A stretch of 62,886 nt of DNA, filler included, from Kipferlia bialata (taxonomy: Eukaryota): the NCBI GenBank assembly GCA_003568945.1. It is 4 parts of 4 records of this genome, joined end to end, with 100 filler letters (N's around TTAATTAATTAA, not from the genome) between each part and the next. Parts side by side here need not be neighbours in the genome. Positions count along the whole stretch, not along the records: positions 1 to 22,857 come from BDIP01000015.1; 3 more parts are not named here. One strand, 5' to 3'. The notes under the pieces are model-generated. The model did not search any database. It was not told the DNA's origin and saw only the letters and a program-made list of their open reading frames with translations. The position numbers and the translations under genes were made by a program. Numbering within the stretch: the first letter of the stretch is position 1; every line of letters begins with the position of its first letter. This document shows, piece by piece, positions 912-62,586 of the stretch.

Positions 912-1610
912 CTACTTCTTCCGCCCCTTTCCCTTGGCAGAGTCCTGTTGGCACCTCTGTCTCAGGCAGTCCTTCTCGACATCAATGAGATAGTACTCCT
1001 CGTGGCAGTACCTACAGTAAACATGGAAATAAGCATTATATAGTAGTATATATATACATTTATACCTAAAGAAGCAAGACATTATATATAATGATAATGA
1101 GAGAGCACTCCTCGTGGCAGTGCCTGGAGTGAGTAGGAGTAGTAAGCATGTATATACATACTCTTATACTAAAAGGAGCAAGACCCTATATACATATGCT
1201 ATTGAGATAGTACTCCTCGTGGCAGTACCTGTAGTGAGGCTGGTAAAGAGAGACGTGTAAAGCAGTAACACACAATGACATGTTACCATCGCATACATCC
1301 AATGGTGGATATAAACAAGTCTCTGCCACCGGGGCAGATTTATGGACCACATTAGATTACTAGGCCTAGTAAACATAATGTATCCATTATATATGCATAT
1401 ACCTTGGATGAATGATATCCATGTCCCTGAGGCATAGGTGCAACACCTACCATATACATGTGATATGAAATATACTACACAATACATCACTATATATATA
1501 TATACATACTTATATACATATATATATACCTTGGATGGTTGATGACCATGTCCTTGAGGCTGGTGGGTACACGACGCAGACCCGTCACAAGGATAGAGTC
1601 TGGATTCAGT

Positions 1611-1646
<36 letters not shown>

Positions 1647-4600
1647 TGTGTAGGTGTGGTTCAACTTCCATACGTATATAATTATGAAAGCACTAGTGGT
1701 ACCAAAAATTCCCTCGAATCGTACTAATCATACTCATCACGTAGAACATAAGTCATCTATATGGAAAATACACGTATACTACATTATACGTACCGTCAGA
1801 TAGCACACATGACGTGTATGTATCAAATGCGCTGTACTTGTATGGTCCTGTCAGACTCTCCACACCAGGCAGGGTACATAGGGTCTTGGTACGAGCGGAA
1901 CTGTTGTTGAGTGGCATACATACACAATAAACAGAGTGTATATGTACATGAGTCCATCACAATTCCGACTCAGTTCCAGTGGATGTCTTGTTCGGTAGCA
2001 TGAATATATTTGCGTAATAGAGGTGAGAAGTACAGCTGGATACCAAAACGGACCTCACTGCGTCATGCCCATACACATGGCCATCCTTGTCAATCATATA
2101 TGTATGTATATATATATATATATATATCTATATGCATACTATATAGTAATAGTATGAATATAAAATACACTACCTTATTGCGTCATGCCCATACACATGG
2201 CCATCCTTGTCGAAACACACAGACACACACATATTAATAACTATACATTATGAACAATGATGCACACTTCAATACACACCGTAGTATACTATATGTACCT
2301 GACTGCGTCATGCCCATACACCTGGCCATCCTTACACACACACACGCACGCACACACACACATATATATATAGAACCATACTATACACTATATACTACAT
2401 ACCTCACTGCGTCATGCCCATACACATGGCCATCCCTGTCAATCATATATATATAAATATATGTATATATATGTATGCATACTAAATAGTAATAGTATGA
2501 ATATAGAATACACTACCTTATGGCGTCATGCCCATACACATGGCCATCCTTGTCAATCATATATATATGTATATTTANNNNNNNNNNNNNNNNNNNNNNN
2601 NNNNNNNNNNNNNNNNNNNNNNNNNNNNNNNNNNNNNNNNNNTACTAAATAGTAATAGTATGAATATAAAATACACTACCTCACTGCGTCATGCCCACAC
2701 ACATGGCCATTCTTGTCGAAGCTGAGCGAGAGACCATCACCGACGTCCTGAGGGATTAGTTAATCATATACACACATACATACGTATATATAATATATAG
2801 TATATATAGAGAGAGAGTGATATACCTGCATTCCAATACACTCCTTCTCTGAGGCGTGTTGTGTCCACACACCCTCAGGATACGCAGCGCTAGGTGCGGT
2901 ATAGGAGAGGTGGATCTGCTCCTTGGTGTCCTCAGAGGAGGCAGTCAGGTACATGTCCCTTCTGGTTATATACATATCTATGTATGCATATACATATATA
3001 TACACATTGAATACCATTACAATACTATATATAAGGATCAGAGGAGGCAGTCAGATACATGTCCCTATTGGTTAGTATCTTTGTGTGTCTTATCCGGAGT
3101 ATAGTATATATATCCGATGCATGGTACTACTCCTTATTGTCCTGGGAAGGCAGTCACGTGCATATCTCTTGTGGTTAATGGGTAAGATGGTATATATCCC
3201 TAGGTTATGGAGATGGCCGAATTATGACGATCTCCACTATACAGAAAGATTATATGTAGCACAACACATGTAAAGATAGCATACTTGTATGGGACCATAC
3301 CCTCCAATAGTGTGGCAGCTTTATGGTGTGACAATGTAACTCCCAGTTTGTTTAGGATACGAGTGACACATATATAGAATGCAAATGTGAATGGTACTTA
3401 CCCCCCAACGGTGTGGCAGCGTAGCTCCCACTCAACCTCTAGTGAGAAGATTGGTGGTGAGGGTGCTCCTCTCTGGGATGAGAGGTGATTACACAAAGAG
3501 TCATTATACTGTAAATCTCTAGGAATGGAGGAGACATATATATATATATATATACACGCAGAATACTTACCGTCCACGTGTTTGTGTGTGTGTCTAATAT
3601 CCATGGATACACTACACCAGGGTCGTTGTTGGCACTGCTGCTACTGCTCTCCTCCATACCCACATCCCCTTCGGAACTCTCTGACTCATCTTCTGCCTCT
3701 CCATCTCCCTCTTCCTCTCCTTGTTCAGTGATCCTCTCAATAGGGTCGTGTGGTATATCTGGCTGTACCGCACAGACAAGCTAGAGTGAGTACATACGAG
3801 CACACAGTATACGTATGATTATAGACATATATATACATATATACATCTGACTGCGCGGCACAGACAAGCTGGAGTGAGATTGTCTAGGAAGTAAAATTAC
3901 AAACTCAATGAGTAAATAGTTGTCCAGAAGAGAGTATCATGTGTAGAACCAAAACATGGTGTCCCAGGTCTTCTCAGTAGGATACATAAACAAATATATG
4001 TATATTGCATATTTTTGTAATACACATACAGTATGTACCTTGTCCTCTCCCAGCCTATATCTAGTATCTATATATCAAAATATCTAAATATTTACATATA
4101 TATTAAAGTATGTCCTTGATATTATATATACATATGTAAATATATGTATATATATATTGTAGTAGTCCTCTCCCAGTCTGGCCAACGAGACTCGATAAAT
4201 GTAGGATACACATACAATACTAAGTATCATGTATTTATGTATGTTGTATATATGTATATGTTATGTATATATATACTATACCTTGTCCTCTCCCAGCCTA
4301 GCCACCGAGACGTCATAGATGAAGGATAGACATACAATACTGAGCATCATATATATACGTATATTATATATATATATGTTGAATACTATACCTTGTCCTC
4401 TCCCAGCCTAGCCATCGAGACGTCATAGATGAAGGGTCCCTAGGGTTAGTGTGAATGTCCTCATTCCTATATATATCTCAATATATACCGTGTATATGGA
4501 TATACATCACCTATACCGAGTTTGGAAGTGTCTCCAGTATCATGGTATCTACGCTCAGAACATAAATATACAGAGAGTAAATATAATATATAAAATATAC

Positions 4601-6197
4601 AATACAATGTAAACACAACCATGTATATCATGTCAAGAATACCTATCTCTCCTCTGTCAATGTCTCCCATGACATGGTATCTAGACTCATATGAAACATA
4701 TACTATGGTATATTTACCACACTGTATTTCTATGGCATAGAGTACCTCTCTCTCCTCTGTCAATGTCTCCTATGACATGGTGACCAGACTGAGTACATGC
4801 ACATACAGTGGTGAATAGATAGTAAAGCTCTATGTAACCTATATATATGTGATATGTATTACCTTTCCCTCTTCTGATACAATCTCCCATGTCATGGTAT
4901 CTAGGCTCAGGACATGCATCTTCAGAGGGTATGCCTCAGACCGGCAGATGTAGACCTGGGATCAATCCTATATATATATATTCCTCTATACTTGTATGCA
5001 CACACACACACATATATATATATATGTTGTATACAAGTGAAGACTCAGTGTAAATTCTCTATATATAGAGGATAGGTCTCAGGCCGGCAGATGTACACCT
5101 GGGTGAGACAATGCCACAGTAATTATCTATATAATATGAGACAGTGATTAGACTAAAAGCGATAAAGTATTTGTTCACTGTCAACATATACTTACCTTCC
5201 CATTGATACACACTGGGTCTGACCCCATGTATGGAGTCTGACCGTCGGCTGTTCTGAATCCCCCTCCCGCTACTCTCTCTCTCTCTCCTCTCTCTATCTC
5301 CTCTGCTTCCTCTCCCAGCTCTGGCTTGGTACTATCTACCTCAGACAGGGAGAGTGAGAGTGTATCTGTAACCGTTGCCTCCGTCACAGAGTATGACGCA
5401 GGACCGGTGCTTGTCACAAGCAGCACGCGGTTGGGACCTGCCGTGTTAGGTAAGAAGCATGTATTGAAGTATGTATGCCTGCATGAGTGATACACACCGT
5501 ATACACTGTGACCGTTCTGTCATTCACACGGTAACTCACGTATATGTGTACCTACTTGAACGGCCCTGAATCCCAAGTAGAACCGTGTGGGGAGGGGCAG
5601 GCGCTGAACCTGTGTCAAGAATAGTGAAATGTACAAAAGATGTATGTAAAAGTGAGTATCAGTATAGAAGTACAACTTCACGAGTATCATTGGGGATAAT
5701 GTGTACGCAAGTACATGTAGGCTGGATAGAGTCTAAAAACCCGTTAAGGCACCCTGAGTGGAAGCGTAACTATATAAGTACATACAAGTATGTATATATG
5801 TAGAAATTCAAGTATATATGTAGACATACAAGAATAAATATAGATTTTTGAATAGATATATACTAAAATGTATACGTACCCTGAGTGGAGACGCCGCAGA
5901 CTCGAACGCCCCTGTCTCATGCAGGGCGAGGAATGTTGGGATGGCATTCGTCAGAAAGTACTCCTGAGATGATAAGAGAGACAGACGGAGAGAGAGTATG
6001 TGAAACTGTTATTCAGATCAGAAGGTAAATACTCCATATACATATATAAGGTTCGTACCGGTCCGAACTTGCTAGGGTCCTCCCCTTCCATACTGTCCCC
6101 ACACTCTTTGTAGCACAGGGTGAGTGTGTCTATTACACACTGGGGGACGCCCTTGGAGACAGGGCCAGACAGACCTGGGATGGGTAATATATATATG

Positions 6198-6231
<34 letters not shown>

Positions 6232-9200
6232 TCCACTGGGGGACGCCCTTGGAGACAGGGCCTGAGAGGCCTGGGGTATGTCTACAATCACAAAATATGT
6301 GCTGGGTATTGAAGTACCATGCTCTTATTACATCGACAGAGAGGAAAGTAATATGGCAAGTATACTCAACCACAAGCCCAAAAACGCCTGGGGTAGTATA
6401 TGTATACAATACCACAAACTACTTGTCTGAGAGACGCCTATACGTCTATACACTAATAACGAATTACTATATACATATAGAGGCATACATGGGAATTCAC
6501 GTATGGCTCCTCGCTTGAGAGTCCCGTCCTTGGCCAGATAGTGATGGGCCAGGCAGAAACAGGTGCCATTATAGAGCTGAGGTCAACATATATATATACT
6601 ATATGAAATATGAAATATGAAGTCTAATAGCTAAGAAGAATGTGTATACATACTATTGTATAGTCCTATATAGAGTTCCAGACAGTATATCCAGGTATAC
6701 ATTCTTAGGTAGATACTATGTGAAATCTTATAAATACACATAATACATACATACTATTGTATTGTTCTGTATAGAGTTCCAGGGCAGGCAGAAACTGGTT
6801 CTGATGCATCACTTTGCAATGCCTCCTGTATATACATATAAATGTGAATATCTACTGTTATGAGTCATCCCAATGGCCATGGTGGGTACCACTAACACCA
6901 TTCATACCACATATATACTAATACATATACCGCTTTTATCCTTATTCTCCTCTACACAAAGTTGTGTGAATCTACCTCCTGTTTTGAAAGCTCCCAGTGG
7001 CCAGGCCTTGTACTGGACCGAGGGTGGAAGGGGACGACAAGACTAGCAAAGAGACCCTAGAAGGTGAGTATATACGAATAGGGGTATATATATGTATACA
7101 AGACTAGCAAAGAGGCCCTAGCAGGTCAGAATACAAAGTAGGGTACATATATAGATAGAGAGAGAGAGAGAGAGAGGTAGGGGACGACAAGACTCGCAAA
7201 GAGGTCCTGGCATGTGAGTATGCGAATAGTATAGAAGACAAATAGATCAATATAGATAATTATTTGGTATTTGGACTATAGGATATATATACCTCTGTGG
7301 CGATCTTGAAAGACGTGTCTGGTGTTGTCTATAGTAGTATATATGTATACAAATTAGTATTCATACCTCTGTGGCTATCTTGAATGGCGTCCACCAGGGC
7401 TTATCCCCAAGGTTAGAGATACCCTGTGCTAATAGCTCGGCTAAGACAGGGCCGTTGACAACCATATCGTAATTCCTGTTTGTTAAGGGTATATGGAGGG
7501 AGAGAGAGGGGTGAGGGACTGTGCTAATAGACCGGCTAGGACAGGGCCGTTGATAGACTATATCGTAATTCCTTTGAGTTAAGGGTATAAAAAGAGAGAG
7601 CGAGAGTCTTTACCTGGCCGGGTCCAGCACATACTCGAATATGGGGTGTCTGATCACGGCCTGTTTCTCATCATCAGCAGAGTCGGCCAAAGCAGTGATG
7701 ATGTCCTATTGATAAGAGAGAGAAATAGATACAATATACGGAGAGAGAAAGAGAGAATTGTAAGGAGTAACCTGTTGGGATGGAGACATAACAACAAATC
7801 ACGTACCGATAGAAATAGGATATGTCTGCATACACATATATATATATGCATGATAATTAACAGTATGTCTTGGTATACCGTACCGTTGGTTGTAACCGTC
7901 TTGTTCTCTCCTCCCTCTCTCCCTCTGTCTCTTCATCTCCTGGTTTCTCTCTCTCCCTCTCTTCCAGACCTTCTATTGCCTCCACGATATTGATTAAGGG
8001 TCCAGGAGGAGCAATGGATTTCTCTATTGCCTCCAGTAGTGAGTGGAACGCTGTGAGATTCTCCTCAGACTTGAAGAAATGGCGTCTCCTGGGATGAGGT
8101 ATATATATATATATATATACAATCTCCTCAGACTTGAAGAAATGCCGTTTCCTGGGATGAGGTACATAAAATTATATATATGTATATGTATATATACACA
8201 AATACATAGATATATACTAGTAGATAAACAGATGATATATACATACTAGGGTACACACACATACTAGTAGATATATAGATGTCGCTTCTTCTTTAGATAT
8301 CTTACACAAAGTGAAGTAAATGAATACCTAAAAGTCACAACGCCCCAGAGATTCATGTCTACAATATATATGTGTATATAGTGAGAGGGTACAATGTAGT
8401 GTTAATGTATATGATGCTAATATGTAATTGAAAAATCGTATAGACTGCACGTACTCTCTGTCTGTCTCTGTTTGGATGCAGGAATAGGTGATACAGGCCT
8501 GAGAGTCAAAGCAGTGAATATGGATACAAGCTGACTCACTTAGAGACGTATGAGGAGAGATGAAATGCGAATCTTCAATCACACTCTAGTCCCATGTCGA
8601 GATCATATATAGTTCAGTACTACAATTCGAAGAGTGATCTCATGTCAATGTGTATGCGGCGTCTCTCACCTGTCTCTATATATATACCTATATATATCTA
8701 TATATCTATATGTATATACATATTTACACATCACCTGAATGCACTGTACATGCCTGTCACTCCGGGACTGCCCACTGACTCTGGGGTCAGTTTTGTAACA
8801 CTGATACTACGGATATTTGGATATTTTACACTATACATAATATATTAGACATTATATACATATATATATATATACCTCTCAAGATACTTGGTCAAGTGGT
8901 CCACCACTTCTAGCTGGTATGGCACATATGCACGGACATATCTTGCATCAGGCCCATCTCTCTCTCTCTCTCTCGCCCTCTCCATCTCAGGCAGTAACTC
9001 GCCTGGAGTTAGATATGTGCAAAGAGAGAGAGGGAGAGAGGGAGAGAGGGAGAGAGAGAGAAAAAGAGAGAGGGAGAGAGAGAGAGAGGCTCTCCATCTC
9101 AGGGAGCAACACCCCTGGAGTTAGATACATGCAAAGAGAGAGAGGGAGGGAGAGAGATAGAGAAAGAGAGAGAGTGGCTCTAGTGAGGCATCGGACATCG

Positions 9201-10486
9201 CACTGTAATACGTATAGGAATGAAGGGTAAGTGTCATACAATGTATGTATGATACATACACATGTGAACAACACTATTACCTAGATCCAGGACTGCCCTC
9301 TCTGACACAGCCACGTCACACATAGAAAATATATATATATATGTATCTATACATATACATACTAAGAAATATCTATATATACCATTACCTAGCTCCAGTA
9401 CTGCCCCCTCTGCCACAGCCATGTCCTCTATATTATATATATACACTAAGACTTTACTATATATAGTGCATATATACTACATAATATTAAGAAGTATAAT
9501 ACTTCCTCATACCTAGCTCCAGGACTGCCCTCTCTGCCACACCCATGTCATACTCCCCTCCCTCAACCTCTCTGTCTTCCTCTGTCTGAAGAGTGGACAC
9601 AAGAGCATGCACCCTAGTGATAAGTGCAATACGTAGTATAAGAGTATGGTATATAATACAATAGTATACAGTATTACATAGTTATATCTTCCTCTGTCTG
9701 AAGGGTGGACACAAGGGCATGAACCATTGTCGTGAGTGTAAGAGAAGGAACAAGCCTGAAGAGTTTTCGCAGTGTCTCTAAAGAATCTCATAAATATGAA
9801 CTGAAGAGTGGACACAAGAGCATGCTCCCTAGTAAGTGCAATACATAGTATAAGAGTATGGTATACTATAATAGTATATATACAGTATCATATGATATAT
9901 CTCCCTCTGTCTGAAGAGTAGACACAAGAGCACGAACCCTAGGGGACAATTATAACAAGTATGGAAATGTACTGATTGTATCAACAATATCAGGCCCGGG
10001 GCGGGGCGTGGGAGGGGGGGGGACACACACGACATACCTCTGTGTCAAGGTCCTGAAAGACACATCGGGATCGGCTGAGTGAGAGGGAATGGAGTATATG
10101 CAAATGGGTATACCTTACATCCCAGTATATAGTAGAACTGAAAGGAAGGGAGAGACACACAGTACTCATGTATACTCTGTAAAAGGGGGAGGGGTTATAC
10201 AGGTTCCTGTGGCAGGAAAGGAGAGAGTGAGACACACACTCAAAGGAGACAGATGTGTGTTTGGGGGGTAAGGGGGGGGGGGGTATACACACACACAGAG
10301 AGACATACATGTATACATACCTGGTCTCCTGATGTCAGGCTCAGGCACAGGGCCCGGTTCTTCTGAGTGTCAGAAGAACAAATCAGTACCAAGTCATATT
10401 CATACATGTGCAAGAGACAATACTTCTATATGATAACTCAATACCAAGTATATAAACACTTAATATACTGCACAACACTCACCCAT
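912..10486 (-). CDS. Large multi-exon hypothetical protein, possibly with degenerate Kelch-like segments
   Basis: Many GC-richer exons bounded by GT..CTMACCCYAG, e.g. RHFFKSEENLTAFHSLLE, DIITALADSADDEKQAVIRHPIFEYVLDPAR, NYDMVVNGPVLAELLAQGISNLGDKPWWTPF, LKMHVLSLDTMTWEIV. Last exon ...DSAKGKGRKK* with stop at 912-914. Start ATG G|AA at 10486 is tentative; could be more than one gene. Confidence 0.55.
2054..2720 (-). repeat. Array of six copies of an exon 3' end plus donor site
   Basis: GCGTCATGCCCAYACACATGGCCAT core at about 2060, 2180, 2305, 2409, 2523 and 2686; only the last belongs to a complete exon. Confidence 0.9.
2578..2642. other. Assembly gap inside an exon-echo repeat array
   Basis: 65 Ns flanked by near-identical repeat units. 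Confidence 0.95.
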
Positions 10487-10871
10487 TAGTGACTGGGAGT
10501 AATGCCTTGGGTAGAGAACACAATCTACTCTTCAGAAAGATGAGCACAGTGATTGAAACGCCAGACGCTTATAGCGAACTTGGTGGTATATGTAGACTCA
10601 TCTCTGACCCAGAGTCTGTGAATATGACAGATATAATACTAAAGCTCCAATCATCCGTCTCAATTACCATCATGACGAGAGACCACCGAAATTCATATTC
10701 TATTCACGACTATGGTCACAAATGCAAACCAGGGAGAAGATCACATGCTCCTCAAGCTCTCTCTCCCCCTCTCCCTATGGCTCAGAGAACTTAGAGATCA
10801 CCCTCCAGCTCAGCCACCCTGGCCTCCAGCTCTCTCTCTCTCTCTCTCTTTCTGAGTGTATAGTATCCCTC

Positions 10872-13800
10872 TTACAGATCTCCCTCCAACTCAGCCACTC
10901 TAGCCTCTGCCTGCTCCACAAGGGACTCCAGCTGGGTGAGCTTGGCCCTCATGGCAGCTGGTCTGCGGTTAGATAGTAATACATATATATACATATACTA
11001 GGAAGAGAGGGACAGAGAAAATGGGTTAGATATAGAGACACACGCATAAATATATAGGAGAGAGAGAGAGAGAGAGATCCATCAGATGGGAGACAGCTGG
11101 CCTAGAGTTAGATCTACACAGTATAGGGTATAGCGTACCCACAACGTACATATATCATATATATATATATATATATATACTTATCATATATATACATTCA
11201 CTCACCTAGACCCAGGTGGCCACTCCTCGGGCATGCCGTCGGGACCCATCCTAGAGTGAGATATCTATATACATATATAGTCTGTATACATATATAGTAA
11301 TTACTATATACAGAGAGGGGGGGGGGGAGCAAAGATTTGCGATCACACAGAAGTAGTATGTATATATATATATTACACCACAGTACATATCCATGTGGTC
11401 AGGAATACTCATGTAATAGGCCTAGTAGTACCTGATTCCGAAGTCGTCTGCGTCTCCGTCCACTGCCTCAGACACATCAACAACCTGGGGGTTAGACACA
11501 TATCTACATAGAGGAAGAGAGAGAGATGGAGAGAGACAAAGACAAGTCTCCGTCCCCAGTATCAATTCCCCCAACAAGCAGGGAGTGAGGGGGAAATGTG
11601 AACACATATAGGTGTCCAGCCTCCTCAAACAACAATGCCCCAAAACAGAGACATACTATGAGACATACTATATACATAAATGAATAGATATATATATATG
11701 CATACCTTCTGAGCCTCTGCCAGCCTCTCCACTCTCCTCTCCTCCACCATCTCACCAAGCACCCAGTCCTGGGTGTCAGTGACAGTATATAAGAATCTAA
11801 GATATTCAAGAAGATACAGTCAGGTACCAAGCTCACCAAGCACCCAGTCCTGGGGGTAAGTATATATGACAATGAAAGTATACTCTATTCTACTAGTTCT
11901 TCCATTCAAACAGATATAGAGAATAGTGATAAATGAATGTAGATACACCAACAGTATACCTGCAGAGCAATGATGTCCTCTGTCTGCTCCCCTATGCATG
12001 TCACCACTCCATCCTCAAACAGACACAGCCTGCGGCCCTGGGAGGGGACCCTAGGGTCACAATCGAGTAGAAACATGCAGGCAATTTTATAGAGTATCTA
12101 CAACTTCTTCACCTAAAGCCAGCCCAGATGAGGTTGCTATATAGTAATTCATGTTATATACCTAAAGGCGGCGCAGAATGATCTTGTGTCGAGGTTTCAG
12201 TCTGTAACGTATAGACAAAGAATACGCATACATATATATGCAATACCTGAATGCGGCGCAGAATGAGCGTGTGTCGAGGTCCTTGTCACACTGGAGAGAG
12301 TACCCCAGGGTGTTGTCGACAAGGTTGGAGGCAACCTTGGAGGCGTTGATGTCAAACTGGGGTTAGTATATACATGGGTATATATGGAGGGATAGATAGA
12401 GAGAGAGAGAGGGAGAGAGAGAGTTGTCAACCAGGGTGGAGGCAACCTTGGAGGCGTTCATATCAAACTGATATTAGAATATACATATATGAGTATTTAT
12501 ACACAAGAAAAGAGAGAGAGATAGACTCACAGAAACACTGTATATATCCTATGTACACCACCTGCTTGCAGTCTGGGCACATATAGCACAATCTAACAGA
12601 TACATATATATAAATATATCACAACTGGTGTACCTGCTTGCAGTCTGGGCATGATATGGACAGGAGGACAGGGAGCTGCTCGGTCTGAAGGTGAGAGAGT
12701 GCTGACTACAAAAATCTATATTCATACACCATCATACATACTGATATCATATCATACACAATATGTATATGTATACTCTTTATCACCATATCATTACATA
12801 TTCATTCCTATACTATGGTTCATCCTAACCTGAGCAGCGTCGACCATGTCCTCCTCATTGGTGAACCTAGTCATATTTATATGTATACCATATATATACA
12901 CTATATATACACATACACACACATATATATATAATGCACTAACCTGAGCTGCATCCACCATGTCCTCCTCATTGGTGAACCAAGTTATATATACTACATA
13001 TACACTGATTTAATGTATATATACATACCTTTATGTATAAGAATGTCTATATATATATATATATATATACCTGAGCAGCATCCACCATGTCCTCCTCATT
13101 GGTGAATCTGGGCAGGATACCCTTGACAGGCACCACAAACTTGGCCTGATATAAGGGGCTAGAGGGAGGGAGAGAGTGGGTCATACCTCCAGATATGCCT
13201 CGAACGCCAGTGGTATATATGTATGGATATAGATACATACAGCTAGATACAAATATGTGAAAATGACATACGTATAAAGAAACACACACCTCCAGGTATG
13301 CCTCGACCACCAGTGGCATATACTGATAGAAAGATATACATTTGATATTCATAAGATGTATATACATATATATACCTCCAGGTATGCCTCGACCCCCAAT
13401 AATAAGTATAGATAGATATAAGACATATTTTAATTAATATACATATGTATACACACCTCCAGGTATGCCTCGACCACCTCGGGAGACCACTCGTAGGGCA
13501 TGACCTCAACCTGGGGTCAGGGATACATTCACACTCACACATACACACATGTGAATATGATATATTTATACCTTAGGCTCGTTATCCACTCCCACAAACA
13601 GCATGGGCAGCTGGGGCATGTTGGAGACACTCCGTATAGTAATTAGAGTATATAAATATGTGTGTATGAGTGTAAGAAGCTACCTTTGGCTCATTATCAA
13701 CTCCCACAAACAGCATGGGCAGCTGGGGCATGTTGGAGACATAGGGCACATTCTCAGGGTCATTGACATCGACAGAGAAGAAGGCACAGCCAGTGACCTG

Positions 13801-14368
13801 GAATAAGGGTCTAGATGGGGGGAGAGAGAGAGAGTCATTGACATCGACAGAGAAGAAGGAGAGAGAAGGAGAGCGAGAGGATCTGGAAAGAAAGTACAGC
13901 CTGTAACTTGAGATAAGGTCTGGGGAGAGAATCATAGAGAGAGAGGGAGAGAGAGAGAGAGAGAGAGAGTCAGTTATATATTCCAATATCTAACTACTTC
14001 CAATATACTATGTACATGTATAATAGTCTAACTTAGTCCACAGTGGCTCCATCTCCTCCATGAGTGCCAGTGTCATATATGTATATAATAGTAGATATTA
14101 CTAGACATACATATACATACTAAATATACGTATGCATACTATATACACACCTTAGTCCAGAGTGGCTCCATCTCCTCCATGAGTGTCAGTTCCATATATA
14201 CATATATTTATAAACATACAGTGAAATGACCACTATATTACACAAAAGAGTGCAAGACTATCTATCAGTACACATACAATATATACATACCTTAGTCCAC
14301 AGTGGCTCCATCTCCTCCATGAGTGCCAGTGCCTCGGGCTGGAGGGTGGCATCATAGACCATCACGAC
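10872..14368 (-). CDS. Thioredoxin-fold (PDI-like) protein, 5' part missing
   Basis: Phase-consistent exons: VVMVYDATLQPEALALMEEMEPLWTK / VTGCAFFSVDVNDPENVPYVSNMPQLPMLFVG / TEQLPVLLSISCPDCKQ (CxxC) / FDINASKVASNLVDNTLGYSLQCDKD. Coiled-coil C-terminus ...ARVAELEGDL*. Confidence 0.6.
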
Positions 14369-14623
14369 CTAGGGATAAGATATACACACATATATATATA
14401 CATGAAACAAAGAGAGAGAGAGAGAGAGAGAGAGACTTGGGCTGGAGGGTGGCGTCATACACCATGACGACCTGAGTGTTGGATGAATATAGTGGAGAGA
14501 GAGAGGGGGAGAGAGACTAAGGGTGCATCATATCTGGTAAGAGAGAGAAAAGAGAAAAGAAGAAGGGGGGGGGGGGGGGGGGGGGAGAGGGGGGAGAAAA
14601 AAAAAAAAATAATGAAAAAGAAA

Positions 14624-14654
<31 letters not shown>

Positions 14655-14760
14655 GATTATGGAGAGGGAGATACTGATACTGATACCGATACTGATGTTT
14701 AGAGTTATATCACGAGTCATCATCATGAGTGTATATACAACACGTACAGTAGGCCTATAC

Positions 14761-15159
14761 GTTCTGCCTTATCCTTGGTCTCCCTGTACATCTGGAACTG
14801 GGGGGTTAGATACGTATTCATATATATATATATATATATGTATGTATAAAGAATATACAGAGAGAGTATGTTTAGGGTATACAATGACTTACCTTTGGTC
14901 TCCCTGTACATCTGGAACTGGGGGGTGAGATAGATATGTATCATATAGCATGACATTATCCATCATACATACATGTGGGTGTATGTGTAAAGGATGTATA
15001 TCAATAATATGTGTGCTAACATGAAACAATATATAATACGTGTCATAAATACCTGAGTGAACAGGACAACGTCGACCAGACAGAAGTATATCTATTTACA
15101 CACTATATATATATGCATACATATATTCGGTATACAATTATTCTATATATACATATGGC

Positions 15160-15190
<31 letters not shown>

Positions 15191-15626
15191 CTGAGTGAAC
15201 AGGACCACATCCACCAGACAGAAGTAGATGCCGCTGATGCTGGGGGTGAGAGGCACAGATAGGAGGTGGGGGAGGCACACTTAGGGGGTGAGTGACATAC
15301 ATAGGGGTAGGGAGGCATAGATAGTGGGGGAAGGATAGCATAGAAGTCAGAGACAGATAAATTGATATATGATAGGGTAAGACATGAAAGGGCGGATAGA
15401 GATGGGTTATGGGTAAGGGGGTCAATGTATACTCAATAATATCCAGAAAGTCACCACTTTACCACTCATTATGGGAACACACCAAGGCATGGTCTAATAT
15501 ATATTCATCACTTTACCACTCATTATGGGAACACACCAACGCATAGTCTAATATATAATCTTCACTTTACCACTCACATCTGTGTTGGCAGGGCATTGGT
15601 CAGGATGGCACCTGAATGTGAGGGGC

Positions 15627-15665
<39 letters not shown>

Positions 15666-15937
15666 AAAAGGCATTGGTCAGGATGGCACCTGGTGGTAAG
15701 AGAAAGGGGAGAGAGTGAGTGGCGAGAGAGAATGAGGGAATAGGGTTAGGAGAGGGTGATATTGAGAAATGAACAACTCTATGAGATGGAGTTGAGAAGG
15801 AAAGACCGGAAGAAGAGAGAGAGAGATGCGACACTCACCTAGACAGTTTGTGACATCCCCAATGATCCAGTTGATGAGGAAGGCATAGGATATGGAGGAG
15901 ACGCTCTGCAGCCTAGGGATTAGTTGATAGGGGGGGG

Positions 15938-15982
<45 letters not shown>

Positions 15983-16937
15983 AGGCATAGGATATGGAGG
16001 AGACGCTCTGAAGTCTGGGATCAGAAGATACACACTATGAGCACACATAGGATGGGAGGGGGGGGGGGGGCAACAGAGAGAGGGGACTGCATAAGATATA
16101 GAGAAGACACACACTCTGAAGCCAAATGGTAAGCAGTGTACTGCAATGTAGACGAGTGGAGAGAAGGGGAGTGGAGGGTGTAGAATGTGGATGAATAGTA
16201 CTACTCATGTAGATATATAATGTGGGGTTGGGCGTAGAGGGGGGGGGGAGAGCGAGGGAGAACAAAGTAATATGAAGGATGAGGGCACAATGTCATGTCT
16301 AGGGGGAATAGATATATGTCATGAATGCATATACTAGGTATACGAGGAAGCAGACAACATAACAAAAGGACAGGAAAACGTCTTTCGGTCTAGGAGAATA
16401 CAGGCCCCACATTGTTATCGAGAGATAGAGAGAGCGAAGACTAAGTGTCCAAGGCTGGAAAGCTAGAGACAACGGTACGCAAGGGGGTGGAAGAGCTTGA
16501 AACAACAATGATTCGATGTGATAAATGTATGTATATGCTCCCTCTCACCTGTAGTTCTTGAGGATCTGTGGGAACTGTGCCACTATCCAGCACATGACTG
16601 ATAGCAGTCCACATGTGAAGGAGACTAGGTAGGCCACATTGCCAACCTGGGATGATATGACAGAGATTGCATAATACCTTTAGATATCTGTTAGTATATG
16701 TTGGAAGGGGGAGGGGGGGGATGTATACCAACCCAGTGACGCATACATGCTTGTATCTCAGTCAATATCCAGTAATGCGAGACATAAGAAGAGAGATCTC
16801 ACGAAGTCAGTGTGAATAAGAGTGAGAGTTATCCCTACTCCATCTACTGCGCATACCTCCACACATTGCCCCAGATACGTCAGCCACTCATAGTACTGTG
16901 CACCCCCACTGGTGTCACACTGCACCTGGCCCAGCAT
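14761..16937 (-). CDS. PQ-loop transporter (PQLC2/YPQ-like), N-terminal half only
   Basis: Spliced MLGQVQC...CVE / VGNVAYLVSFTCGLLSVMCWIVAQFPQILKNYR / LQSVSSISYAFLINWIIGDVTNCL / GAILTNALPTQI / ISGIYFCLVDVVLFTQ, which is a typical first PQ-loop repeat. No second repeat is seen before the poly-G tract at about 14565-14652. Confidence 0.85.
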
Positions 16938-21097: not shown

Positions 21098-21484
21098 GGA
21101 AGGGGTGGGAGTCCCACTGGGACAACTTAGACCACAAGTACTCGTTGCCATACTTATCAAGTGATATTTAATCACTGACTTGCGAAGACTGGATCGTTTC
21201 TCCGCACCCATGAACACATGAATAGACAAGACTCTTGTCACGAGAGTATATGTGGAGTAATAATTACTCAGTAATACCAATGCATAAGTGGATAATTAGC
21301 CGTCACGCTTCTGAGACGAATTAGACCCATCAAAGACTCACGAACTGCATCTATAACCTAAACACTCGACACCCAACCATTGTGGAAACAACTAAAAGAA
21401 CATACAAAACAGACACACAAAGAACATCTCGATACATCTCCCTGGTGGAAACAATCTCTCTCTCTCTCTCTTTCCACTTGACGT

Positions 21485-22716
21485 TCACCGCCTGGTGAGT
21501 GCAGAGAGACTGCCTCCCATGCTGTCTCCCTTGGGGTTAGATGGAATATTCATCGTTGTATAGTACAATAAGGATACATATATACTGGTGTGATATTGAT
21601 ATATAAACATAAATGTGTGTGTGTATGTGTGTATGTAGTGCAGAGAGGCTGCCTCCCATGCTGTCTCCCTAGGGGTTAGAAGGAAGAGAATGATACAAAT
21701 CAGTATATGGTACGCTATATACATAGACACTATATAAACACTATATAAACATATCTAGTGCAGAGAGACTGCCTCCCATGTCTCCCAAGGGGTTAGAACA
21801 GTGTATAATTGTATACTATACATGCAATATGCAGTATACGTAGTATGTAGTATGTAGTATGTAGAGTAGAAAACGATAATAATGTACAAAACAAATGGGT
21901 AAGGCATGGAAATGGTGTGGTGATAATGAATCGTATCCACACAATTCAACCAAATATGTGTTACAAATACGTACACATATTCTGGATGTATGTATAATAT
22001 ACACACAGAAGATGCCATACCTTGTTGCCCTTCTTGGATGATGTCTTCTTGAGGGCACTGGGGGTGAGAGAGAGTAAGAGAGAATGGTAGAGAGAGACAG
22101 AGATGCCCCAGAACAATTACATATGTAGACGTAATAATACCATAGAGTATCATAAATGTAAAATATACTATCCATACCTAGATGTGAGGTGTCCAGCATA
22201 TGCCCTGTGGAATGACAGTTTGAGACTTCTCTAATCATACATGGACTATATACTGAAAATAATTCATAATAGCAATATTGGAAATGTACCTTGATGTGAG
22301 ATGTCCAGCGTATGCCCTGTGGAATGACAGCTTGTCAGACAGGGAGTCACGCTGGGAGGACAGCTCTCTGTGTTCCCTAGGGATAAGCAATAAATATAGA
22401 AAGAGAACTTGACGAACAGAGAGAGAGAGAGCGAGAGAGTCACACTAGTGATCCAAAGGAATAAGTGCTATACTATGCACTGCACAAAACTAGAGAGAAA
22501 TACACTCACTTCTTGAGATCACTGAGTAATACACTGAGTCCCGATGCCAGTTGGGCCAGTTCGTCTCTGTTGAGTATACATACATATATATACCACTATA
22601 TCTACTTACTTCTTCAAGTCACTCAATAGTACACTGAGTCCTGATGCCAACTGTGCCAGTTCGTCTCTGTTGAGTCTATGGAGGTTGGAAGCAACGGGAC
22701 CTGGGGGCTCAAAGAC
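21485..22716 (-). CDS. 3' end of a hypothetical coiled-coil protein (truncated by contig end)
   Basis: Phase-consistent exons VFEPPGPVASNLHRLNRDELAQLASGLSVLLSDLK / KEHRELSSQRDSLSDKLSFHRAYAGHLTS / SALKKTSSKKGNK / GDSMGGSLSALTRR*. Confidence 0.7.
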
Positions 22717-22803
22717 CTGACAGTAAGTATATATATATACATAGAGAGAGAGAGAGAGGTTGGAGGCAACAGGGCCTGGGGGCTCAAAGACCTGAGGGTG
22801 AGC

Positions 22804-22857
<54 letters not shown>

Positions 22858-22957
22858 NNNNNNNNNNNNNNNNNNNNNNNNNNNNNNNNNNNNNNNNNNN
22901 NTTAATTAATTAANNNNNNNNNNNNNNNNNNNNNNNNNNNNNNNNNNNNNNNNNNNN
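22858..22957. other. Artificial contig linker
   Basis: N44-TTAATTAATTAA-N44, with stops in all six frames. Confidence 0.98.
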
Positions 22958-22979: not shown

Positions 22980-23805
22980 CTAGTCTGTCATATCCTCCAT
23001 CTCCTGCTCAGCTGCCTTCTCAGCGGCCTCCTTGGCCTCCCTGGCCTTGCGTCTATCAGTGTTAGCAAGCCTGACATTGCCCTTGGCGGTCAAGGGGGCC
23101 AGCTCGTAGACCTCCTTACGGCGGATCTTGGTGGACTGGGGGGAAGCGACTGCCTCCGCATCCACCACCTCCCTAGCCAGCTGGTCAGCAATGGACTGCT
23201 TGACGGCGAGGGGGGAGGCCATAACCTGGAGCTGCAGGTCCTGGTAGCGCTTCTGGTCGAGGAGAGAGGGGGCGGCCTTGAACTTAGTCAGCATCTGCTT
23301 AACTACCTTGGTGTTGATGGGCACAGGAGGGACCTCCACGGACTCTGTCACATATATCACCTTGCACACGTGCTTGCAGGGGCAATAGCGGGCGGGGAAC
23401 TCCTGGCAAGTGAGTACGATACATATATATATATATATATAGACAGATACACATATAACATTATACTACTATATATAAATATATATGAATACACACTATA
23501 TATACAGAACACACGTACGTCAGTGTTGATCCTGTACTGGGGACAGGTGCACACGTAGTGGTCAGCCACCCAGGTCACCACGTAGTAGTCACCATTGACC
23601 CCGGAGGCCAGGACGTGGAACATTCCGTCTGCCAGCTTGATAACATAGGACTCAGGGATGGCCTTGCTCGACTGTACCATGCGATGACGCCATGCAGCCA
23701 ACCTAGAAGGTAGGTCCTGGCCGGTCATGGAGTTCATGGTATGCCTCTCTAGGACACGAGCGATCTCAAACATCACCTCCCGCATGAGTGTGGATATGCG
23801 CTGAC
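22980..23805 (-). CDS. SWIM zinc-finger protein, C-terminal part; Mutator (MULE) transposase-like
   Basis: Exons 23805-23519 and 23402-22980 splice to ...FHVLASGVNGDYYVVTWVADHYVCTCPQYRINTD|EFPARYCPCKHVCKV..., a CxC-xn-CxH SWIM motif in a typical MULE-like context. No DDE core is visible. Confidence 0.7.
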
Positions 23806-56515: not shown

Positions 56516-57462
56516 GCATCATGTTTGGTCTCCTTGTCCTGGCCGGTGGCTGGTGGCTCATGGTGCACGTGCTGATGTGAGTGGATAGTATTATATACTG
56601 AATATATAGTATGTAGTGTATATAGTGTATGATATATATGTATGTGCTCATGTACGTACGAGTAATATTCCCTGCTTCCTCCTTAACTCCCCCTCCCTAT
56701 TCACTATAGTTACTGCAGGGTCGTCAGTATTATTGTTCCTCTCCCTCTCTCTCTACACTATTTCCCTCTATATCCTATTCTTAACGCATACCAGGGTATC
56801 ATAGTGATGATTCTCTCTCTCCCCCACTTTCTCCTTCTCTCTCTCATATTTCTATCACTATATATACTAATGTTTAGGGTCCTTGGCATCATAGTGATGT
56901 GTCTGTTCCCAGTGCCCATAGTGTATGGTATCATGGGTACGTTATGGACATATGTATGTTATGGGTATATGCATCTATATTTGTATGTATGTAGACATTA
57001 TTTCATACTGGAGGGGTAGAGAGATGAGCCCATAGTGTATAATGTTAGGGTACATTGTTTGTGTATATATACAGCAATAGGTATATGTCTCATACCAGTG
57101 TTCCGCAGTGTCAACAGTGCCCCAGACCCCCCCCCTCTCTCTCTCTCTTTCTTTCTCTGTATATATATGGCCATATATTCCTAATAACAGTCTTCCGCAG
57201 TGTCAACAACGCCCCTGACTCCAAGAAGAGCCAGAAGACCAAGAAGGAGGAGGTATCTATACAGATAGAGTATATATATATATAATAGAGAGAGATAGTA
57301 ATGCCCCAGACTCCAAGAAGAGCCAGAAGACAAAGGAGGAGGAGGTATCTATACAGATAGAGTGTGTATATATATAGAGAGATAGAGAGAAGGAGAGAGA
57401 GAGAGAGACTCCAAAAAGAGCCAGAAGACGAAGAATGAGGAGGTATAGAGAGATTATATATG

Positions 57463-57498
<36 letters not shown>

Positions 57499-57911
57499 AG
57501 GAGAGAGATTACAAGAAGAGCGAGAAGACGAAGAAGGAGGAGGTATGGAGAGTGTATGTGTCTATGTACGTCAAGCGCAAGCATATCGCTCTTTCCTATG
57601 TATCTTAGTATCTAGCATGGGTATTTCCTCGTACCTTGCCCACATGCTTGCTGTCAATGCTTTATATATATGTATCTCTATCTCTCTCGCCCTCTCTCTC
57701 TCTCTCTCTGAATCTATTTGTCTCTCACACCAGTACCTTGCCCATATGCGTGCTTGTGCATATACTCATATATATATCTATATTTATATATATATGAATG
57801 TATATATGTATATATGTAGTGATGGTATGTATCTAACCCTAGTACCTAGCCCACATGCGTGCTGTCAATGCTGCCAAGGCAGCTGAGCAGACAGCTGAGG
57901 ACGCTGTCTAG
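56516..57911 (+). CDS. 3' end of a membrane protein
   Basis: Phase-consistent exons GIMFGLLVLAGGWWLMVHVLM|VLGIIVMCLFPVPIVY|VFRSVNNAPDSKKSQKTKKEE|YLAHMRAVNAAKAAEQTAEDAV*. Confidence 0.65.
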
Positions 57912-58400
57912 AGAGGGAGAGGGAGAGGGAGCGAGAGAGAGAGAGAGAGAGAGAGTATGTAGTAGTAGTCTGCTGAGCAGACAGCTGAGGACGCTGTATA
58001 GAGGGGCTAGAGGGAGAGAGAGGGAGAGAGTATGGAGTAAGCGTACTAGGTCTAGTAGTCGGTAGTTAGAATTGAAGTGCAGGAATGCACAGACACCGCG
58101 TTTCACACGTTCCTCACGTTTCAGACGCTATGGTTAATAATAGAACTCATAGTATATTCGTGGAACTGGGATTATTGAATTATCAATATGAGTTCCCTCT
58201 TCTCTTAGATACCAAAAGAGAGAAGTAGATATCTAACACCTGATTCTCTCTATTCTTCATTGGTACACAAAACAAGTAACAGAAATTGGAAACATACACT
58301 GAAAACAACACACTTAAAGAATGTCTGTAATAGGCACTTGATAATAAGGCCCATGCTACAGCGACTGCAGCGTCTCAGACGTCTCGGGCGTCTCGACCGT

Positions 58401-59289
58401 TCACACCTCCGGGAACAAGTGCCTGAAGAGTGTTGGGTTGAAGTCTGGGAAAGACTTGAAACCTGGGTGTCAGCAACTACACTCATTTGGATAGGAATCA
58501 ATATAATGAACACATACTGTGCAGAAGTTAACATCCACCGCACTCAGGACATAGTGTAGTATATATTAGATAGATATAATAGGATATATATAATACAGTT
58601 CTCTACAATACACATACAAATTGTATAACATATACATATGTATATAATACCTGGGCAGTAGTTGACATCCACCACACTCAGGATGTGTTTTGTTAAGAAT
58701 AGTACAGTATATAATAACAGTATATACAATGAATACATAATGTAGATGTATATATACCTGGGCAGTAGTTGACATCCACAACACTCAGGACACTGGACCC
58801 TCCCTCTCCATCTCCCTCTCCCTCTCTATCTCCCTCTGTCTTTCCCTCTCTATCCCCCTCTCCCTCTCTCTCTCTATCCCCCTTCCTGTCCAGAATGACA
58901 TCGATGCCCAGCATGCTGACACTGGAGGTTAGAAATGTGAATATATATACCCATAGTGTATTTACATAAAAGCATATATATATGCACATATACATACTTT
59001 CATTCATCGGTACCAAGAATGGTGACATCAAAGGACTACTAGTCATAGATATACTCATACATACTCACTTTAGCCTGGCCGATAGGGCCAGACACGTCTT
59101 CCTAAGGACAGACAGCTCAGCCTGGGGTGAATAATAGGGGGTAGAAGATGAAGAAAGGGTGTAGAAGGAGAGAGAATAGTCTTCCTAAGGACAGACAACT
59201 CAGCCTGGGGTGAATATACTATATATTCACCACACACGCATACATATGGGGTGCAAGGAGGTATGAAGAGTGAAGGAGGATAGAAGTAG

Positions 59290-59335
<46 letters not shown>

Positions 59336-61469
59336 CACCTCAGACAGGTTGTGGGGTGTCACTGGGCTGGAGCGCATGAAGGACTGGGGGTAAGGGTAGA
59401 TAAGGGAACCATATTCAATAAGAAAATACACATATTCCATATATATATATCTACTCACTATTACTATATACTCACTACTGTTATACACAATACACATATA
59501 TATATCTGGAGCACATGACGGACTGGGTACAAGGGAGGGATAACATATACGTATCATAAGTGCGTACTATATATACAGATATTACCTACAAAGATATGGA
59601 GGGCAAGAATGATAGGGAGTATGGGGGTAGACTCTAAAAGAAATAGATGATAGTGGGAAGAACACAGAGGTCAAGGCAAATTAATATTCAATACATATTA
59701 CACATATAGAATATTCATATAGAAAATATATGTACCTGACTGTTGAATGGGACAGTGTCCACAGCAGGGTCAGAGAGTGATATATAATGTTACATGAACT
59801 CATAAAATAATACATTATAAGTGTAAGTTGTCTATATAGTCATTGTTATAGTGTCAATTAAGTCTCATACTGACCTGACTGTTGAATGGCACAGTGTCCA
59901 CAGCAGGGTCAGACAGAGTGCGGACTAGGGCCTGGGAATAAGGGCGTAGAGGGAATGCAAATCAAAAATATGGTATCCCGTACCTGTACTGGCTCTGACA
60001 CGTCTCCGCATATCACGTGCATACATGGACATATATATATATAAGTGTGTGTGTATATATACATACATATATTGCTTACACTTATACACTCTATGTATAC
60101 CTGCACCGGTTCTGACACGTCTCTGCATATCACGTGCATGGAGTCACCGATCATATAGACCTAAGAATGAGGGGGTAGCAATCTAATTGAGGGTGTATAC
60201 TCAGGGTGTATAATGGTGTAGTCCATGAATTGGCAAATGGGAAGGAAATAGATGTAAACTAATTTCTATATCTGACAACACTCTCACACCTTGTACACTG
60301 TGCTGTTCAGTAGGAAGGGCATGAATAAGGGTGTAGCACAAGAATATGGGTGTATAGGTGCAACTGCTTATAGTACAGTAAGATCAAATAGAATATATAT
60401 ATATACCTTGTACACTGTGCTGTGCAGTAGGAAGGGCATCGCAATGACAGCCTCCCTGCACCCTTTATCCTCTGTGCTAGACCCTTTATCCACTAGGGAG
60501 AGAGAGGTGTCGGCGGCACAGAGCTGCAGACTGGGTCTGAGTGGAAATTAAATAAACACGCATACATTCAGATATGCATATATATACCCATTTAGATGGA
60601 GAGCTGCCTACACTACAATAAAATAGGTATAATAATTAATATTGGCAATAATTATTAACATATACAATATATTCTACATGCACTATATATATACCTGTGA
60701 CTGATGCTGGGCCCACAGCCCCAGAAGGGCAATATATATATGTGTATATATGTAAATGTATGTAAATAGTAATAATGTATTTATGCATATATGAACTATA
60801 CATATATATATAGTACCTGTGACTGATGCTGGGCCCACAGCCCCAGAAGGGCTTGAGGATGGTGATGCCTGAGTGTAAGGGTGAAGAGGGAGATCAATAT
60901 GGTATACAAAGAGAAGCTAAGAATAATAGATTTTATGAAAACACTGGTGAACATAGAACAATGGGTGGGTGAACGAGCCCATGAAAGTTGAGAAGTGTCC
61001 GAATCATACCTCTGAGTTATCATTATATATGTATTTATACAATAAGTAATATACATGCCTGGGTATGGCAGGTTGACATAAGGTATATGTGAATTCATAT
61101 ACTCATATACAAATACTATTCATATGTATACATAAATATATGTATATATTAATATATTTATACACATATATACTAATGTATATATACTAATGTAAATATA
61201 TATACACATATATACCTGGGTATGGCAGGTTGACTAGAGGGGGTGTGGAGACAGACACACCACTATCTCTCTCCCCCTCTACACCCCTATTCAGGGTCTG
61301 TGACACATCCTGGACAACATCAGACAGGACTGTCGACATGTCCCTCCTGATGGTTAGATAAGTATACATTTATACACATATATATATATACATATATACA
61401 ATATATATACTTATACACAATACAGACAGTACAGTGGACATGTCCCTCCTGAGAGTTAACAATATACAT

Positions 61470-61500
<31 letters not shown>

Positions 61501-62013
61501 GATATATTGTATACTCATATGAACTGCAATATATATATGCAATAGTAACATGACGACATCAGACAGGACAGTCGACATGTCTCTCCTGACAGGGTTAGAT
61601 TCACAGCAATCTACACTTAGATTGTATATATACATATTAATCATAATAAGATAAATTATAGAGGACAGTGGACATATCTCCCCTTAAGGCTATATATGCA
61701 TTTATAAATATGCACATATATATAATTCATATTCTACTACCCAGGCACATGGACGATCTGGTAACATATGGTGGATATGCATATATGTTCCATAGAGAAT
61801 GTAAATTCATACCTATCCAGGAAAGGCTTCACACTCATGACTGGGTCCAATACCCTGATGCCCGGCTGGACGGACAGACAGTGGGAGAGGTCAGACAGGA
61901 GGTCCCAGTCAATACCTGATATAAGGGTGTAGAGAGAGAGAGAGAGAGAGAGAGAGAGGCAGTAGTAGAGGTCAGACAGGAGGTCCCAGTCAATGCCTAT
62001 GGTTGGTACTATT

Positions 62014-62046
<33 letters not shown>

Positions 62047-62586
62047 AACCTTCCTCTGGCAGACTGATGGTACAGGGGGATAGGAACATATATATATATA
62101 TACATATATATATATGTATATACATACTCACCCTCCTCTGGCAATTGAGACACTGGTGGGTGCTGCCTGGGGTTCTCTCCCTTGACCAGTGCTGACACAT
62201 CTTCTTGACTCTCAATGACCCCTTGACTCTCCTTGACCCCTTCTGTTGGGGAGGGAGGGCGAGTCACCAGGGCAGGTTGGAACACCCAGTCAGTCACCTA
62301 GAGGGGTAAGAGCGTTTGAGACGTTTATGGGTAACAAACTTGTAGGCTGGAACACCCAGTCACTGACCTGTAGGGTAGGTAGACTATGGATAATTACACA
62401 TACACATAGAACACATATTGCAAAGATATTTGAACATGATTATACCTTCTGCATCACGACATCACCCCTCCTCAGCATGACTCCTCTGCCTCTTCTCTCT
62501 CTCTCTCTCTCATCCCCTCTCCCCCCTTCTCTCTCCCTCTCCAGGTGCTGTCTGATAAGTGACTCTGGGGTCCTCACATGCATAAC
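58401..62586 (-). CDS. ITPK1: Inositol-1,3,4-trisphosphate 5/6-kinase (ATP-grasp) family, 5' truncated
   Basis: LPYPGITILKPFWGCGPSISHR, VIAMPFLLHSTVYK|VYMIGDSMHVICR, TVPFNSQ, VSMLGIDVILD...VLSVVDVNYCPG|FKSFPDF match ITPK1 motifs (KP...G...SH, KVY.IG, FG.DVI, IDINYFPGY). Confidence 0.82.

Follow-up and report, generated by a model that had tools for sequence, protein, structure and literature searches.

The window, the whole stretch of 62,886 nucleotides (filler included) of Kipferlia bialata DNA that was analysed here, contains nine gene pieces in which 82 exons were modelled by coordinates, and all counts given below apply to it. One of its ORFs is identical to the K. bialata protein KIPB_000208. 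Many of the exons have echoes, by which we mean intronic copies of the first or last 15-70 bases of an exon, usually including the splice site. Besides gene C, which was the starting case, the following genes carry them:

912..10362, minus strand: gene A, Kelch-like (P0005), with 23 modelled exons and 29 echoes, and without a synonymous excess
10791..16646, minus strand: genes B1 (PQ-loop) and B2, with 15 modelled exons and 18 echoes, one of them ending at a stop codon
50205..56064, minus strand: kinesin gene K, with 16 modelled exons and 25 echoes
56516..58001, plus strand: gene F, with 4 modelled exons and 7 echoes, three of them stacked behind exon 57191-57252
58401..62586, minus strand: gene E, inositol-tetrakisphosphate 1-kinase (P0006), with 12 modelled exons and 12 echoes

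The conserved V gene (38000-39032, plus strand, 6 exons), which we take to be V-ATPase subunit D-like, has zero echoes, unlike its neighbours. Introns are also present at 28300-34400 and 43100-48900, where microsatellites and detected local repeats are absent, unlike in the echo-rich genes. A single-frame, 1007-aa pentapeptide-repeat protein is encoded at 34483-37506 (minus strand) and has two paralogs in the same species (~40% identity). The gene at 22980-23812 (minus strand) has an intron within a C-x-C-x(n)-C-K-H pattern that we take to resemble a SWIM zinc finger. Runs of N with an embedded TA-rich linker near 22900, 37870 and 56190 point to scaffold joins, which are likewise marked by homopolymer C/G runs near 23840 and 14600, and the window may combine several contigs.

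Reading frames were taken from RNA contigs for gene C and from the annotated proteins for genes A and E; Pfam matches set those of four kinesin exons and one PQ-loop exon, and open-frame continuity those of B2, D, F, V and the remainder of K. Outside gene C, the live copy was chosen by annotation, Pfam or open-frame continuity, not by RNA. Exons with an unsettled frame (near 8358, 6826, 6576, 6387, 16956 and 14917/14800) were excluded, as were most of gene D and every gene in 26000-50000 except V, and five gene A echoes across an N gap were retained in the counts. Echoes were detected by an ungapped search, with 492 pairs of an exon and a foreign intron as control. Three sets of contigs were compared with gene C: X1 consists of DNA contigs, possibly the window's own source and hence a second assembly rather than a second sample, while X2 and X3 are probable RNA contigs from two samples, spliced at GT-AG introns. 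The features of gene C are:

22756..22791, minus strand: acceptor-side echo of the start of exon C1, with CAG before it and (CT)n/(TA)n after it
22610..22716, minus strand: live exon C1, 107 nt, matched by X2 record 9 with 0 other letters and a joint to 22376
22575..22609, minus strand: 35-nt spacer with the live donor GTAAGT and TA-rich sequence, and a weak in-frame AG before 22595; unlike the echo's flank
22510..22574, minus strand: donor-side echo of the end of exon C1, followed by GTGAGT; present in the DNA contig, skipped by the RNA contig
22290..22376, minus strand: live exon C2, 87 nt, with RNA joints in X2 and X3
22178..22221, minus strand: donor-side echo of the end of exon C2, followed by GTATGG; skipped by X2 and X3
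22021..22057, minus strand: live exon C3, 37 nt, with zero echoes detected
21757..21780, minus strand: far acceptor-side echo of exon C4, decayed, with its AG lost and a 3-nt deletion
21637..21668, minus strand: near acceptor-side echo of exon C4, with TAG intact; skipped by X2 and X3
21488..21529, minus strand: live last coding exon C4, to the stop codon, from an RNA joint and translation

The original prediction compared three of these echoes with their exons, and its comparisons are exact. The main echo (22574-22510) differs from the exon end at 22674-22610 in 10/65 nt, which change 8 codons, echo 22791-22756 differs from the exon start at 22716-22681 in 3/36 nt, and echo 22221-22178 differs from the exon end at 22333-22290 in 4/44 nt; the peptide is unchanged in all three. 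Combined, these amount to 17 nt and 15 changed codons, all 15 of them synonymous. The main echo starts 35 nt after the exon end, with a repeat period of 100 nt, and the near echo of the last exon (21668-21637) has 1 synonymous change in 32 nt. With automatic alignment, the five gene C echoes give 16 synonymous and 1 non-synonymous distinct changes, the latter being an edge change from the alignment running the main echo 4 nt into a TA run. The flanks of the four in-register gene C echoes are indistinguishable from background.

A single DNA contig carries exon C1 and both donor-side echoes with zero differences, which goes against the objection that the copies might never share one molecule. 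This contig, X1 record 1, spans 21300-22716 (1417 nt, 0 other letters, 0 gaps, depth 466) and runs through the two donor-side echoes as well as both last-exon echoes. The acceptor-side echo at 22791-22756 is outside every contig listed and rests on the window's assembly. Probable RNA joints with GT-AG ends and 0 other letters were found at 22610->22376 (X2 only), 22290->22057 and 22021->21529. The probable RNA contigs X2 and X3, which as assembled contigs lose rare variants and forms, join the full gene C exons and skip four echoes, and the major gene C transcript uses full exons. The 5' part of the gene lies beyond the gap upstream of 22860, with the RNA contig extending 367 nt more; a significant Pfam match to gene C is absent.

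The echo at 22574 had been described as having no canonical acceptor, which agrees with the score of the only nearby in-frame AG, 21 nt before it (the exon start would be 22595): -5.5 bits, far lower than the 5th percentile of modelled true acceptors (4.8 bits). As X2 and X3 skip the gene C echoes and the nearby acceptor is far below true ones, these echoes are not ordinary alternative exons. Among the X1 matches listed there is neither a second allele of 21300-22870 (at least 80% identity) nor, in these contigs, a collapsed exon-echo joint. An allelic full exon with echo codons, about which the original prediction had asked, is absent from the X1 matches listed and from two metagenome scans; these scans gave 78 and 591 pattern matches, none of which was confirmed as another strain or relative.

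Across the window, 97 echoes were found on 50/82 modelled exons, compared with 1/492 control pairs. Nearly all (91/97) are in register with the exon edge, successive copies are 61-163 nt apart (mean 106, SD 20), and the exon parts are ~92% alike (269/3190 nt differ). Free ends coincide often within stacks. Decay is seen as lost splice sites, stop codons (contained in two echoes) and one deletion. Three echoes copy a whole exon or finish at or near the stop codon, which indicates that the feature is the edge of the coding sequence and not the splice site alone. Introns with both donor and acceptor echoes number 11/72, as if the two were independent (P 0.63), and for this reason we rejected the idea that a complete foreign intron was inserted as a nested unit along with its two exon flanks. 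Exons with donor echoes end in AG in 30/31 cases, against 27/41 for other exons (P 0.001). This bias and the spacing prompted us to consider recursive splicing at echo AG|GT, which would leave three features uncovered: the acceptor echoes, the echo at 22574 (whose exon ends in AA) and the amino-acid conservation. A fixed total tract length is also unsupported, because echo and spacer lengths are barely anticorrelated (rho -0.17, P 0.18).

At 10791-10826 (minus strand) and 57972-58001 (plus strand), the 3' flank carries an echo of the end of a last exon, stop codon included, in which 5/5 and 1/1 changes, respectively, are synonymous. The decayed whole-exon copy at 4746-4838 (minus strand), which contains stops, equals exon 4955-4863 in length (93 nt). 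A short exon occurs twice at 14770-14917 (minus strand), near-identical and each time with an acceptor, and was excluded from the counts. Five stacked donor echoes at 2054-2554 (minus strand), separated from their live exon by an N gap, have one flank type at the first and fourth unit.

The splice sites of the echoes are well preserved: each position of GT is retained in 92-94% of cases and each position of AG in 94-97%, and 43/48 donors and 25/33 acceptors score higher than the 5th percentile for true sites. A passable in-frame partner is rare: an open acceptor was found for 2/56 donor echoes and a donor for 6/41 acceptor echoes, and 2/97 echoes have an in-register internal GT/AG pair. Donor identity between echo and live copy at positions +3 to +6 is 0.70, 0.50, 0.32 and 0.34, against 0.62, 0.31, 0.39 and 0.40 for unrelated donors. 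Donor flank identity thus equals background from +3 onward, and acceptor flanks are slightly above it. Flanks that beat 95% of unrelated ones number 17/86, the other 69/86 being unrelated to the live intron, and with a free offset 8/59 are alike. Flank likeness does not follow exon divergence (Spearman -0.11, P 0.30), and pS is 0.224 for echoes with like flanks (7) and equally for those with unlike flanks (77), which indicates that the exon part and the flank have separate histories. Up to four mutually unrelated flanks occur within one stack, and in the five-copy stack one flank type recurs out of order. Among 64 spacers, 4 match only the adjacent unit and one more finds a weak match elsewhere in the window; as the spacers form no dispersed family, a shared mobile spacer, mobile element or Introner family was rejected within the window.

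To 223 distinct codon changes, synonymous ones contribute 132, non-synonymous ones 89 and stops 2 (59% synonymous), while the expectation is 26% if the copy is dead and 41% if one copy is live and one dead (P 2e-25 and 6e-8; echoes sharing an exon are non-independent, and P values are therefore too small). The null uses the 12 substitution types measured at non-synonymous sites, with 5 nt trimmed from the free end. Under this spectrum, 136 synonymous nt were seen and 73 expected (119 and 73 without gene C), so that a bias in substitution types was rejected as the cause. For gene C, 15/15 synonymous changes have a probability of 2e-9 at the neutral rate (0.26), 2e-6 with one copy live (0.41) and 4e-4 at the window-wide rate (0.59). 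Being improbable under all three rates, the gene C count is a hand-picked extreme of a genuine window-wide bias. The synonymous bias first read from gene C is therefore real and code-aware, but 15/15 is its best case: the window stands at 59%, and the Kelch-like gene is without excess.

After extension of 91 echoes to the splice site (the 6 out-of-register ones were dropped), pN/pS is 0.29 overall, 0.14 in the 63 echoes outside gene A and 0.16 when genes A and C are left out; in the trimmed set, genes B, D, E, F and K give 0.16. By our own derivation, a copy dead from birth gives about 0.5. The fast-evolving gene A has no excess, with a pN/pS of 0.58 (P 0.99) trimmed and 0.84 extended to the splice site. 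Taken by themselves, the kinesin motor exons give a marginal result (pN/pS 0.28; 29 synonymous changes seen and 21 expected, P 0.051). It is the genetic code that the bias tracks. With gene A excluded, first-position Leu transitions are seen at 9/44 vs 9/589 for non-synonymous ones, and third-position transversions at 47/663 vs 8/623; these two contrasts reject a third-position mutational periodicity. Changes private to the nearer echo, where the live exon equals the farther echo, are synonymous in 19/34 cases (0.26 expected, P 2e-4). In the 91 echoes, the first 14 nt from the splice site have a pN of 0.049, against 0.083-0.093 beyond (P 0.001), and pS from the splice site outward is 0.27, 0.18 and 0.23. 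Replacements per codon are 0.128 in farther and 0.066 in nearer echoes, a difference that is non-significant in a paired test (22 stacks, P 0.17).

The copies of exon edges in these introns are real, and those of gene C are skipped by its assembled RNA. A pN/pS well below 0.5 indicates that both copies were coding through most of their divergence, and hence that two live versions, alleles or homeologs, coexisted. As neither a second allele nor a second isolate was found, we infer the source from the echoes themselves: they may once have been the live exon ends of other alleles or homeologs, deposited by out-of-register recombination, a reading whose chances we judge to be about even. One-sided invasion during break repair makes short linked duplications from a proximal template in the same genome. 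The first copy of an exon edge with its splice site would arise by tandem duplication, or by one-sided homologous repair ended by microhomology joining, and the survivors would be those that leave the exon intact with its own two nearest splice sites. The resulting echo of 20-70 nt would then be a block of homology that can pair with the live exon end of another allele. A crossover at a point p would swap the echo from p to the splice site for a piece that was coding until then, together with the intron of the other allele, and in the reciprocal product the stack would collapse and an old flank would be revived. Repetition would produce stacks with allelic, mostly synonymous differences (pS about 0.2-0.25), cleanest beside the splice site and with unrelated flanks. 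The echoes would be without present function, as a record of exchange between alleles.

If the echo on one allele pairs with the live end on the other, polarity, shared free ends and a mixed flank order are predicted, and the low pN near the splice site is the polarity expected from such a crossover. Passages of the cited papers describe metamonads as lacking NHEJ, and Fornicata as having lost Rad51A and retained two Dmc1 paralogs (PMC8516963), mismatched heteroduplex as stabilised by Dmc1 (PMC6719624), and mirage unit number, in the amphioxus boundary copies discussed below, as differing between haplotypes (PMC3087553). As background only, the absence of NHEJ and Rad51A in Fornicata, which keep the mismatch-tolerant Dmc1, makes inter-allele exchange plausible. 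The inter-allele model assumes that introns are unalignable between alleles and that synonymous sites differ by about 0.2. It leaves unaccounted for the narrow spacing (61-163 nt), the AG bias (30/31 vs 27/41) and flanks that are wholly unrelated; gene A without excess, the marginal kinesin motor exons and the stack-rank trend (P 0.17) also count against it. In a wider form, which we offer tentatively and with some doubt, Kipferlia would keep exchanging exon edges with diverged alleles in a mismatch-tolerant, Dmc1-only manner and store the displaced ends in introns. The introns would then be a genome-wide archive of past alleles and introns, readable from one haploid genome, as well as a major source of intron length and direct sequence evidence of metamonad outcrossing.

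Ordinary tandem duplication of the mirage type within one lineage, with sister-templated copies, concerted evolution in cis and very fast turnover of microsatellite-rich introns, would share its layout with the amphioxus mirages. This account would attribute the bias to the live exon's own evolution and to repeated echo-to-exon conversion under selection, which meets two difficulties: a pN/pS of 0.14-0.16 is far under about 0.5 (0.4 with multi-copy cis conversion, by our own estimate), and private echo changes are also biased to synonymous. Gene A fits the expectation for one live and one dead copy, and a second allele is absent among the X1 matches listed. True tandem units exist, in that 17/86 flanks and 4/64 spacers match the neighbouring unit, but even donor positions +3 to +6, which are constrained, show background identity, and the likeness of flanks is independent of exon divergence. 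On balance, we consider tandem duplication in one lineage rather unlikely.

It is quite improbable that the echoes function now, as parts of a minor isoform, in another life stage or through programmed or frequent DNA collapse from exon end to echo, with their peptide under selection. Such a function would agree with the peak of amino-acid conservation near the splice site, but two echoes contain stop codons. Splice-site strength does not set echoes apart from live exons (43/48 donors and 25/33 acceptors pass), and a weak in-frame AG precedes the echo at 22574; a passable in-frame partner, however, exists for just 2/56 donor and 6/41 acceptor echoes, and an in-register internal pair in 2/97. 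Somatic instability of the Adh3 mirage is mentioned in part of PMC3087553, whereas the collapsed joint is absent among the X1 matches listed (contigs only) and X2 and X3, the probable RNA contigs from the two samples, contain the exons in full, again with 0 other letters.

A similarly low probability applies to a few past hybridisations or a polyploid stage, in which homeologs with conserved exons and saturated introns were repair templates, later lost, with one echo left behind by every one-sided repair. Both the synonymous bias and the lack of kinship among flanks would be accounted for together. Queries with two exons returned one protein apiece, both from Kipferlia bialata, and thus no close paralog is left, as this history would have it; however, up to four unrelated flanks per stack exceed the supply of two parents, and the coincidence of free ends in stacks is unexpected from independent breaks. 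An assembly artefact, with pieces of a second haplotype or strain stitched serially into introns, is very improbable: the window has N gaps and homopolymer runs, a spacing of ~100 nt similar to read length and an echo (22791) outside the listed contigs, but the 1417 nt recur unchanged in a separate assembly (depth 466), where the matches listed include no contig of a second haplotype, donor and acceptor echoes occur independently of each other (11/72, P 0.63), unlike what nested bubbles would produce, and echoes have decayed through lost splice sites, stops and a deletion.

If the echoes are pieces of other alleles, a single genome records allele exchange, with a synonymous diversity near 0.2. 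They would then testify to genetic exchange in a free-living protist whose group is without observed sex; direct observations of sexual or parasexual processes in Metamonada are lacking, according to a passage of PMC8516963. Under any mechanism, where equally strong sites follow each other at intervals of about 100 nt, the spliceosome selects the one nearest the exon, in an organism for which an excerpt of PMC6679479 gives 87/174 surveyed spliceosomal proteins. Echoes also give a path for intron growth in Kipferlia, whose 124,912 introns make it the sole intron-rich fornicate genome in the corresponding part of PMC5874029, and they will misguide gene prediction.

Such copies in Kipferlia, or a synonymous bias in mirages, were not found in the literature, mostly without subscription papers. 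In the portions of the Kipferlia genome paper (PMC5874029) that were covered, 'duplicat' is absent and such copies are unmentioned. The closest likeness is to the mirages of amphioxus (Adh3, globins BflGb6/BflGb9, troponin C and PGBD5), described in parts of PMC3087553 and PMC3902484 as tandem copies of exon-intron boundaries on either side of the exon, with units of 60-160 nt, splice signals often kept and normal splicing; unequal crossing-over was proposed for them there. Echoes are likewise duplications across the exon-intron boundary (91/97 in register, GT/AG kept), and splicing is undisturbed in gene C, where X2 and X3 skip four echoes. In contrast, mirages are reported from few loci of one animal, with minisatellite-like units 81-100% alike, whereas echoes occur on 50/82 exons of a protist and such likeness over exon and intron is confined to 17/86 flanks (8/59 at free offset). 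Echoes also have an amino-acid-conserved exon part, a gradient toward the splice site and 69/86 unrelated intron parts; in the mirage literature covered, with the original Adh3 papers and supplements outside its scope, such density, amino-acid conservation and unrelated flanks are unreported.

Other systems share single features, as far as the portions of their papers go. In the Rogers model of proto-splice-site tandem duplication (PMC2891723), AG|GT is duplicated locally, and 30/31 donor-echo exons end in AG. Intron gain by that model uses the internal AG|GT, which is in register in 2/97 echoes, and gene C RNA uses the whole first copy; echoes make no new intron, and the existing intron gains about 100 nt with each. 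Duplications from SDSA repair (PMC2671141) are short and closely linked and may include exons and splice sites, as echoes do, but SDSA copies proximal DNA of the same genome into identical copies, whereas echoes look like diverged coding alleles tied to exon edges. Mutually exclusive tandem exons (PMC9013439) are neighbouring copies with protein-level purifying selection, as in echoes, and have their own in-frame acceptor and donor; echoes are partial, mostly without partner splice site (2/56 and 6/41, and -5.5 bits for the AG before 22574), and those of gene C are missing from the two probable RNA contigs, which drop rare forms. The 90-bp exon LRR arrays of Tetrahymena (PMC6564038) are also protist exon/intron units, shuffled by ectopic recombination, but they are whole translated exons of one gene family, while echoes are partial, untranslated and found in unrelated genes. 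The echoes are not ordinary alternative exons, and they combine a mirage-like layout, without minisatellite likeness, with an unusual density.
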